The notes beneath the pieces were generated by a model. The model had not been told where the DNA came from and did no database searches. It worked only from the letters and a program-made list of their open reading frames with translations. DNA of 64,000 bases, taken from the NCBI RefSeq assembly GCF_056746865.1, contig NZ_CM163382.1, one strand, 5' to 3'. Position numbers and translations under genes: made by a program. This document shows, piece by piece, positions 25,176 to 25,836 of the stretch (its first letter is position 1; every line of letters starts with the position of its first letter).

Positions 25176-25836
25176 TATTTGTCCTTAAATCATAAATAAT
25201 TAGAATATAAGCCAACTGAAATATTGACACAGAGCTTCTTCAATTTTTACAGCGACTTTTAAGCAGCCAATGAACAGATTGTCAGCTCCTGAAAAAACAG
25301 GTTCCTTGATATAATATTCTTTGGCGCGCCGAACATGTTGATATTTTAATATGACTGATGCAATTTAGATTTTCTAACATTCAAAGTTAGAAAAACTTAA
25401 TTAATAGGCGGGGATAATAATTACTGAAACTTTTCATCTCAATAATGAAGAATAAGTTCAAAAAAACGGCAAATGCAAAAATCCAGTGAATAAATTAAAG
25501 TCAAAAACAATCACATGGCGATGACTATCTTGTGATATTAATTTCGCAACGATATAATATTAAAACACTATAATTAATATAAAATCAAGACCCAATAATA
25601 TTTTTCACTTTAGTCATTATTTACCTAAAAATGCTTCCAGAAAAATAATTTATGAATAAAAGTAAATTCTCTTTCAATATGTAAATTTTTACAAATAAAA
25701 GCGTCATGCCGTATAAAATAAAGACCATTCGATCACAAGCGGATCATTGTTAGTACAATAAGATTGCATAAATTCAACATTGCCAGAAAAAAATAAAGGC
25801 CCGATAGATTACACCAGCGGGCCTTGTGCATGCGTA
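25176..25836 (-). promoter_or_regulatory. Strongly AT-rich regulatory region upstream of the yfc fimbrial operon (probable promoter, likely nucleoid-protein silenced)
   Basis: 660 bp non-coding, very high A+T with multiple A/T tracts and TATAAT-like hexamers directly upstream of yfcV. Confidence 0.5.
25796..25830 (-). terminator. Putative rho-independent terminator of sixA
   Basis: AAGGCCCG...CGGGCCTT stem followed by T-run on the minus strand just downstream of sixA stop. Confidence 0.45.

Follow-up and report, generated by a model that had tools for sequence, protein, structure and literature searches.

The 661-bp spacer between sixA and a yfcV-type gene, at positions 25176-25836 of the window (the whole 64,000-nt stretch of DNA that was analyzed), probably consists of the sixA transcription terminator followed by the H-NS-silenced regulatory region of the yfc fimbrial operon. 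We put the probability of this reading, which is based on analogy with Escherichia coli K-12, at about 75%. The spacer is ordinary and of a kind already known, and its K-12 counterpart is already included in lists of H-NS-bound regions and of promoter islands, so that the finding is essentially known. The anatomy, the base composition and the pattern of conservation were observed directly, as was the lack of any sign of a coding sequence or an RNA. H-NS occupancy and crypticity come from the K-12 literature, and we infer their carry-over to the window allele as well as the choice of promoter.

Position and base composition of the spacer

The spacer is bounded exactly by two coding sequences. 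On one side lies sixA, which encodes phosphohistidine phosphatase (25837-26322, minus strand) and was identified by way of strain 118UI, for which RefSeq annotates an identical sequence. On the other side lies a gene for a yfcV-type major fimbrial subunit of 188 aa (24609-25175, minus strand), which matched the Pfam family Fimbrial (PF00419) with E = 4e-18. This gene is the first of the yfc chaperone-usher operon, whose seven genes are all on the minus strand and encode the major subunit, an usher, a chaperone, three minor subunits, and an adhesin of the StfH/YfcO family. The order of major subunit, usher and chaperone matches that in pap. The gene calls for the operon are those that RefSeq gives for strain 118UI, which is 100% identical to the window here. 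The major subunit gene is yfcV by position and represents a divergent allele, with an amino acid identity of 65.6% to K-12 YfcV and 72.1% to CFT073 YfcV. The usher in the window was called as a full-length ORF of 883 aa, and an intact CDS is annotated for it in strain 118UI, which has the same allele; in contrast, the usher gene yfcU is a pseudogene in K-12-lineage genomes. An IS insertion that is absent from strain 118UI was also present in the window, where it affects the coordinates below 19.6 kb.

The first-pass annotation had called the spacer the longest non-coding stretch of the window, and we found the same. The gaps in a crude ORF map that exceeded it held ypdI and yfdY, a tRNA-Arg gene (36006-36080), or a gene truncated at the end of the window. 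The name "leader" that had been given to the spacer was loose, because the first ~50 nt past sixA are the intrinsic terminator of sixA (25787-25825, minus strand). Therefore, the region is more than a leader; it is the sixA terminator together with the yfc upstream region. Directly past the sixA stop codon, the hairpin AAGGCCCG...CGGGCCUU (25825-25796), with an 8-bp GC-rich stem, was followed by the U-run UAUUUUUUU (25795-25787), as in intrinsic terminators. The predicted folding energy was -17.3 kcal/mol (z = -1.8). This terminator was skipped by the consensus scan because its loop is longer than 8 nt. A G+C-rich hairpin was found at the same place in each allele class, each class having its own version.

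Analysis of base composition showed that the spacer was 70.5% AT over its 661 bp, compared with 51.5% for the whole window, which agrees with its earlier description as very AT-rich and places it at the extreme of the 64 kb. Only 0.1% of all 661-bp windows were equally AT-rich, and every one of these overlapped the spacer. The most AT-rich 300 bp of the 64 kb began at position 25399 (76.3% AT).

It had also been proposed that the spacer contains phased A/T tracts typical of curved DNA, and this part did not hold. The number of homopolymer A/T runs of at least 4 nt was 20, compared with 19.0 ± 2.8 in dinucleotide shuffles, and the number of A-tracts was 37, compared with 38.3 ± 3.0. The periodogram showed no helical phasing of AA/TT at 10-11.5 bp, and the maximum in the spacer was equalled by 35% of the shuffles. 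Curvature was predicted with a wedge model, which gave 12-14 deg/turn for phased A6 and 3.3 deg/turn for random sequence as controls. The mean and maximum for the spacer (4.5 and 10.9 deg/turn) were reached by 28% and 30% of the shuffles, respectively, and the local peaks at 25625 and 25685 were likewise not above shuffles. Intrinsically curved DNA with phased A-tracts was therefore rejected, since neither the periodogram nor the wedge model showed any excess over shuffled sequence.

We then counted promoter-like sites and H-NS motifs. Six promoter-like hexamer pairs were present in the spacer, four on the plus strand and two on the minus strand, corresponding to 9.1 per kb compared with 1.2 per kb window-wide; these sites were counted by a simple hexamer scan, while the original criterion for promoter islands uses PlatProm. 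This density put the spacer in the top 0.7% of 661-bp windows, yet shuffled sequences gave 4.0 ± 2.0 sites. The high-affinity H-NS motifs TCGATAAATT and TCGATATATT had no match in the spacer with up to one mismatch, and with two mismatches the count was equal to that in the shuffles. Since neither the promoter-like sites nor the H-NS motifs exceeded the counts in composition-matched shuffles, the evidence from the sequence is its AT-richness, and the tracts, periodicity, curvature, promoter-like sites and H-NS motif counts all follow from it. There were three candidate promoter positions for yfcV. On the strand of yfcV, the sigma-70-like site closest to the consensus was TTGAGA-17-TATTAT (25414-25442, minus strand), which agreed with it at 10 of 12 positions; this site was specific to the allele class of the window (class I) and was not kept in the K-12, O157 or CFT073 alleles.

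Allele classes and conserved islands

The spacer was surveyed in 5426 complete E. coli genomes, 5340 of which carried one of four classes. Class I, with the window, 118UI and E2348/69, was found in 633 genomes; class II (K-12) in 3072; class III (O157) in 429; and class IV, which includes CFT073, Nissle 1917, 536 and an O25b:H4-ST131 strain, in 1206. More classes were represented by E. coli E69, E. whittamii and another Escherichia species. The window spacer was only ~50% identical to the K-12 allele and 44% identical to the CFT073 allele. The divergence between alleles started exactly at the sixA stop codon: sixA itself was 95-100% identical across alleles, whereas the spacer was 42-53% identical in the same comparisons. 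When the window was compared with CFT073, the flanking genes were 93-97% identical, but identity was 51-75% for the yfc genes. Thus, the spacer is part of a hypervariable cassette, which begins in the gap between smrB and yfcO and ends at the stop codon of sixA. In spite of a mutual identity of just 42-66%, all classes of the spacer were 558-687 bp long and 67.5-74% AT. The spacer thus conserves its length and composition but not its sequence.

Conservation within the spacer was then analyzed across seven classes. All features described below are on the minus strand unless otherwise indicated. The distal tract (25596-25786, 70-80% AT) had a mean column conservation of 0.43-0.58. AT content per 100 nt was alike in all classes, and the distal tract showed no conservation of sequence between alleles; it would serve as a platform on which H-NS binds and spreads. 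Next to it lies island A (25549-25595), which was identified by cross-class conservation and a promoter scan and contains overlapping promoter-like elements. In the first element, TTGGGT-17-TATAGT, the -35 occupies 25595-25590 and the -10 occupies 25572-25567, ending 391 nt before the ATG. In the alignment it corresponds to the K-12 element TTGAAA-17-TATAGT, which was predicted as a promoter from RNA polymerase gSELEX (PMC3946193). A second element, TTTATA-18-TATTAT, has its -10 at 25559-25554, and another, TTGTGA-17-TATAAT, reads in the opposite direction, with a -10 at 25553-25558. The sequence TTTTAATATTATATCGT (25565-25549) within island A was conserved across the seven classes, and the 60 bp from 25596 to 25537 had zero variable sites among seven class I sequences.

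The other islands lie closer to yfcV. A 41-bp near-palindrome with 20-nt arms that are 85% complementary (25362-25402, without strand) was found by a repeat search and alignment; it was specific to class I and overlapped conserved island C (25375-25361). Islands D1 (AAAATATCAACAT, 25347-25335) and D2 (CGCCAAAGAATATT, 25326-25313) were conserved across seven classes, and D2 was also found in Pseudocitrobacter vendiensis. Island E (25256-25285, core 25278-25256), likewise conserved across classes, contains a TATAAA-like box, TTAAAA (25262-25257), preceded by CTGACA (25285-25280) with a 17-nt spacer, and is a candidate for either a proximal promoter or the site of a regulator. The translation-initiation region (25176-25210) was nearly invariant, with a conservation of 0.97 across the seven classes, and includes the yfcV Shine-Dalgarno sequence AAGGA (25186-25182), six nt ahead of the ATG. 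The 17-mer TTTAAGGACAAATAATG around the ATG was also present in E. whittamii, two other Escherichia species and Pseudocitrobacter; a contig scan with it gave 75 matches, of which five were relevant (four in Escherichia and one in Pseudocitrobacter) and the rest were chance. The proximal islands recurred in Pseudocitrobacter vendiensis, and the stretches that were invariant within class I coincided with the islands conserved between classes. Sequence-specific information is confined to island A and the proximal ~170 bp, with constraint elsewhere on composition and length only.

Islands D2 and E are connected by an interrupted inverted repeat, the left arm of which (CCAAAGAATA, 25324-25315) is in D2 and the right arm (TGTTCATTGG, 25276-25267) in E, where the TATAAA-like box adjoins it. 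The repeat (CCAnnGAATA/TRTTCnnTGG) and the box were kept in at least seven Escherichia allele classes and in Pseudocitrobacter. Together they might form a functional counter-silencing unit of yfc, either as the operator of a dedicated regulator or as a stem in the leader RNA; we regard this conservation-based suggestion as tentative and somewhat unlikely.

The same comparisons bear on the strongest alternative to an H-NS-silenced regulatory region, namely that the distal ~400 bp are fast-evolving neutral filler. According to this alternative, AT-richness would result from foreign origin or mutation bias, control would reside in the proximal ~170 bp, and H-NS binding would be incidental. The lack of between-class sequence conservation in the distal part is what it predicts. 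It is also consistent with variation in 54 of 662 columns among seven class I spacers, while yfcV varied less (98-100% identity in five of six further class I strains), with a class IV spacer shorter by ~100 bp, and with the insertion of IS1 in the spacer of some genomes. However, the length and AT ranges given above were kept in at least seven classes, including those of other Escherichia species, despite near-complete turnover of sequence; island A, ~380-390 nt upstream, was conserved and was invariant in class I; and the K-12 spacer is bound by H-NS in vivo and by RNA polymerase in vitro. Neutral filler is therefore unlikely.

Tests for a leader RNA, small genes and phase switching

A transcription start at island A would leave a 5' UTR of ~385 nt, and yfcV could in principle be controlled by a long structured leader RNA (riboswitch, thermosensor or attenuator) after initiation at this distal promoter. 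RNAalifold paired the conserved arms of the inverted repeat, CCAnnGAAUA and URUUCnnUGG, in 8 of 8 sequences. However, the covariation term was -0.11 kcal/mol; there was no real covariation in the stem because both arms are invariant, and extension of the stem was broken in CFT073 and Pseudocitrobacter. Folding of the putative 391-nt leader showed no excess stability over shuffles (z = -0.75), the Rfam search of the spacer gave 0 matches at E ≤ 1, and most of the leader was unconserved. A structured or known RNA was rejected on the basis of the Rfam, folding and covariation results, and control by a leader RNA is very improbable.

The first-pass annotation had also suggested that the spacer could hide a small regulatory ORF or sRNA, and the data gave this no support. 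No ORF in the spacer exceeded 35 aa. Three ATG ORFs of 32-35 aa were present on the yfcV strand, and the 35-aa ORF was intact in 6 of 7 class I sequences, its ATG being lost in strain ST70. However, no ORF of the spacer had a Shine-Dalgarno match, and none was common to different allele classes. The 32-aa ORF at 25831-25733 was interrupted by a stop in strain VCSW7 and by a frameshift in strain 14EC020. Amino acid changes accounted for 6 of 7 variable codons in the 32-aa ORF at 25380-25282 and for 6 of 6 in a 25-aa ORF, which is not conservation of the coding type. A six-frame Pfam scan of the spacer gave nothing above threshold; its sole match at E ≤ 10, DUF6713, scored 14.4 bits against a cut-off of 27 and was taken as chance, so that a relic regulator gene was also rejected. 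Apart from IS1 insertions, no RefSeq gene was annotated in the spacer among the matches listed, and the only terminator-like hairpin was that of sixA. The missing Shine-Dalgarno sequences, the broken frames, the mostly non-synonymous changes and the lack of a cross-class ORF led us to reject a small-protein gene. A gene for a small protein or for a trans-acting sRNA in the spacer is hardly credible.

Fimbrial operons often vary in phase, and the spacer has imperfect AT-rich inverted repeats 368-442 bp apart and two GATC sites, which could indicate a switch, whether by inversion as in fimS or by Dam/Lrp methylation as in pap. However, the repeats were just 73-82% complementary and of low complexity, and no recombinase, papI or papB gene was adjacent, nor was there any Pfam relic of one. 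In each of the 633 class I genomes, a single location covered 80% or more of the query, and among the matches listed every one was a single collinear piece; thus, no inverted form was seen. Together with the weak repeats and the neighbours, sixA and yfcV, this led us to reject a fimS-type invertible promoter. The pap-type switch has two conserved GATC sites ~100 bp apart and papI/papB. The GATC sites of the spacer are 11 bp apart, at -570 and -559 nt, and in other classes they were absent or elsewhere (CFT073 had none), and the pap-type switch was rejected as well. A phase-variation switch of either type is thus scarcely to be believed.

Probable H-NS silencing and related systems

We examined published data on other alleles for H-NS binding and expression. 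The K-12 sixA/yfcV spacer is listed as 2453647_489 among 78 promoter islands (Table 1) and is marked as H-NS-bound in the data sets coded 'K', those of Kahramanoglou et al. for MG1655 and Oshima et al. for W3110 (Panyukov & Ozoline 2013, PMC3661553). It also has a gSELEX peak of the RpoD holoenzyme, which carries an HNS flag (PMC3946193), as well as a peak of RpoS (PMC5493296). In S2 Table of Higashi et al. (2016), yfcV and sixA were both scored as H-NS-bound, and the same study reported faster evolution of H-NS-bound regulatory spacers (PMC4720273). The yfc operon has been termed functional but cryptic, and chaperone-usher fimbriae have been termed H-NS-repressed (PMC3559732). Expression of K-12 yfcV was increased after bicyclomycin treatment (PMC10980228) and on BolA overexpression (PMC4337573), and that of CFT073 yfcV was increased on TosR overexpression (log2FC 5.2) (PMC5956150). 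A paper on H-NS in EAEC 042 and its supplements had no entry for yfc, sixA or fimbriae, and yfc was not mentioned in a paper on RfaH and H-NS in CFT073. Binding data from a related strain, which had been named as a check on the H-NS proposal, thus place H-NS on the K-12 spacer. By analogy, the proposal of an H-NS-bound cryptic fimbrial promoter has good, though indirect, support for the window, where the spacer has the same position and a similar length and AT-richness; the curved, phased-tract part of that proposal falls, being at the level of shuffled sequence.

According to the H-NS reading, the ~610 bp beyond the terminator would regulate the yfc chaperone-usher operon from upstream. Because AT content is ~72% over more than 600 bp, -10-like sequences are abundant on both strands and the DNA is of the kind to which H-NS (with StpA) binds and along which it forms polymers. 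H-NS filaments would extend over the spacer and over the 5' end of yfcV. RNA polymerase would bind many of the promoter-like sites and yet be occluded or trapped, and the operon would therefore be silent in laboratory culture. Expression of yfc would occur only on relief of silencing; the published triggers are loss of H-NS, inhibition of Rho, overproduction of BolA, and regulators of the PapB family such as TosR. The specific control information would reside in the proximal ~170 bp and in the -10-like island, which lies ~380-390 nt before the ATG.

The closest known system is K-12 promoter island 2453647_489. It is like the window spacer in its position between sixA and yfcV, its length (680 bp compared with 661 bp) and its AT content (68% compared with 70.5%), and both have promoter-like sites on both strands, the -10-like island and the proximal elements. 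However, the two spacers are ~50% identical and the yfcV genes 64% identical. H-NS binding, RNA polymerase binding and silence have been shown for the K-12 allele alone.

Other cryptic chaperone-usher operons of the species, yad, yeh, sfm, elf/ycb, ybg and yra, likewise have an AT-rich spacer before the major-subunit gene and are cryptic, according to Korea et al. (2010) as relayed in PMC3559732. The spacers of yadN, sfmA, elfA, ybgD and yehD are also in the list of H-NS-bound promoter islands (PMC3661553). The yfc operon is the same in kind as these and is set apart only by how very deeply its alleles have diverged; in S2 Table of Higashi et al., the yfc genes have dS values of 0.57-0.80 (PMC4720273). 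The regulatory regions of pap and fim (fimS) are likewise long AT-rich non-coding DNA upstream of a major-subunit gene. Unlike these, the yfc spacer is without papI/papB, a conserved GATC pair, a recombinase, or a bounded invertible segment. The proU and bgl systems have curved-DNA regions for H-NS nucleation, with AT-rich DNA upstream of and overlapping the silenced promoter, as here. However, the yfc spacer differs from the proU/bgl type, as it is without phased A-tracts, excess curvature or a close match to the high-affinity motif.

Together with its spacer, the entire yfc operon makes up a hypervariable cassette, of which E. coli has at least four deeply diverged allele classes. The primers for the UPEC marker 'yfcV' presumably fit the CFT073-type allele alone and do not fit that of the window, and such a mismatch between primer and allele bears on the interpretation of marker-based typing. 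The spacer also shows cleanly, in a natural setting, how selection can act on composition instead of sequence. If the inverted repeat and the TATAAA-like box do act as a counter-silencing unit, the surrounding DNA would be selected only for its length and AT composition as a platform for H-NS.

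Extent and diversity of the yfc cassette

The yfc operon and its upstream spacer (window 17280-25836) were compared with the CFT073 locus (L016 15956-23287), to which they were 44-75% identical; the flanking genes smrB and sixA were 93-97% identical to those of CFT073. The edges were sharp, lying in the smrB-yfcO gap at one end and at the sixA stop at the other. By this sequence comparison, the yfc operon in its entirety, upstream spacer included, forms a hypervariable cassette. Alleles related to it were also found in E. whittamii and in an unnamed Escherichia species, which suggests an old polymorphism or repeated allele exchange. 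In strain 14EC020 (L005 134-700), the spacer belonged to class I, the allele class of the window, and was 97% identical to it, yet yfcV was just 89% identical, which suggests a recombination mosaic within the subunit gene.

Features of the spacer and the operon

A 41-bp near-palindrome (25362-25402; AATTTAGATTTTCTAACATT / AAAGTTAGAAAAACTTAATT, 85% complementary) was confined to class I spacers and overlapped conserved island C, a short stretch kept across allele classes; it could be a protein-binding site. Some genomes carried an IS1 within the yfcV-sixA spacer (L015 366-1063; NZ_CP068041.1). H-NS-silenced operons, such as bgl, can be activated by upstream IS insertions.

The usher gene yfcU was called in the window as a full-length ORF of 883 aa (21886-24537), and the same allele was annotated at 21886-24525 in 118UI; in a K-12-lineage genome (L002 1-2406), the annotation marks it as a pseudogene interrupted by an internal stop. 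A 1324-bp IS3-family element (18286-19609) separated yfcP from the adhesin gene yfcO in the window; it had an orfA carrying HTH_Tnp_1 and an orfB carrying the rve integrase core, and its ends appear to resemble those of IS2. The element was absent from the otherwise identical 118UI; in the window strain, its insertion should cut yfcO off from the promoter of the operon.

Other probable inserts in the window

A 415-aa ORF of about 70% AT (32523-33770, plus strand) was located between fadL and mlaA. It was annotated as a hypothetical protein in 118UI, contained no Pfam domain, and was missing from CFT073, in which mlaA directly follows fadL; the ORF is probably an insert gained by horizontal transfer. 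Collinearity with 118UI (L003 from 36031) stopped at about 36030, within a tRNA-Arg gene (36006-36080). Beyond this gene, the window (region 36006-37769) carried another 415-aa ORF (36522-37769, minus strand), in place of which 118UI had genes for an acyltransferase and for a phage tail. The two strains appear to carry different inserts at the same tRNA-Arg gene.

yfcV as a typing marker

The yfcV PCR primers that serve as a UPEC marker are reportedly those of Spurbeck 2012. The primer sequences reported there were compared with the yfcV alleles of the window (24609-25175) and CFT073 (L016 22155-22721), among others. They had 0 mismatches to CFT073 and class IV (CFT073-type) alleles, 5 and 4 mismatches to the window allele, and 5 to 8 mismatches to the K-12 and O157 alleles. 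The CFT073-type allele was present in 1206 of 5426 genomes. Because this primer pair fits CFT073 and class IV alleles alone, a 'yfcV-positive' typing result would mean carriage of the CFT073-type allele, not the presence of yfcV.
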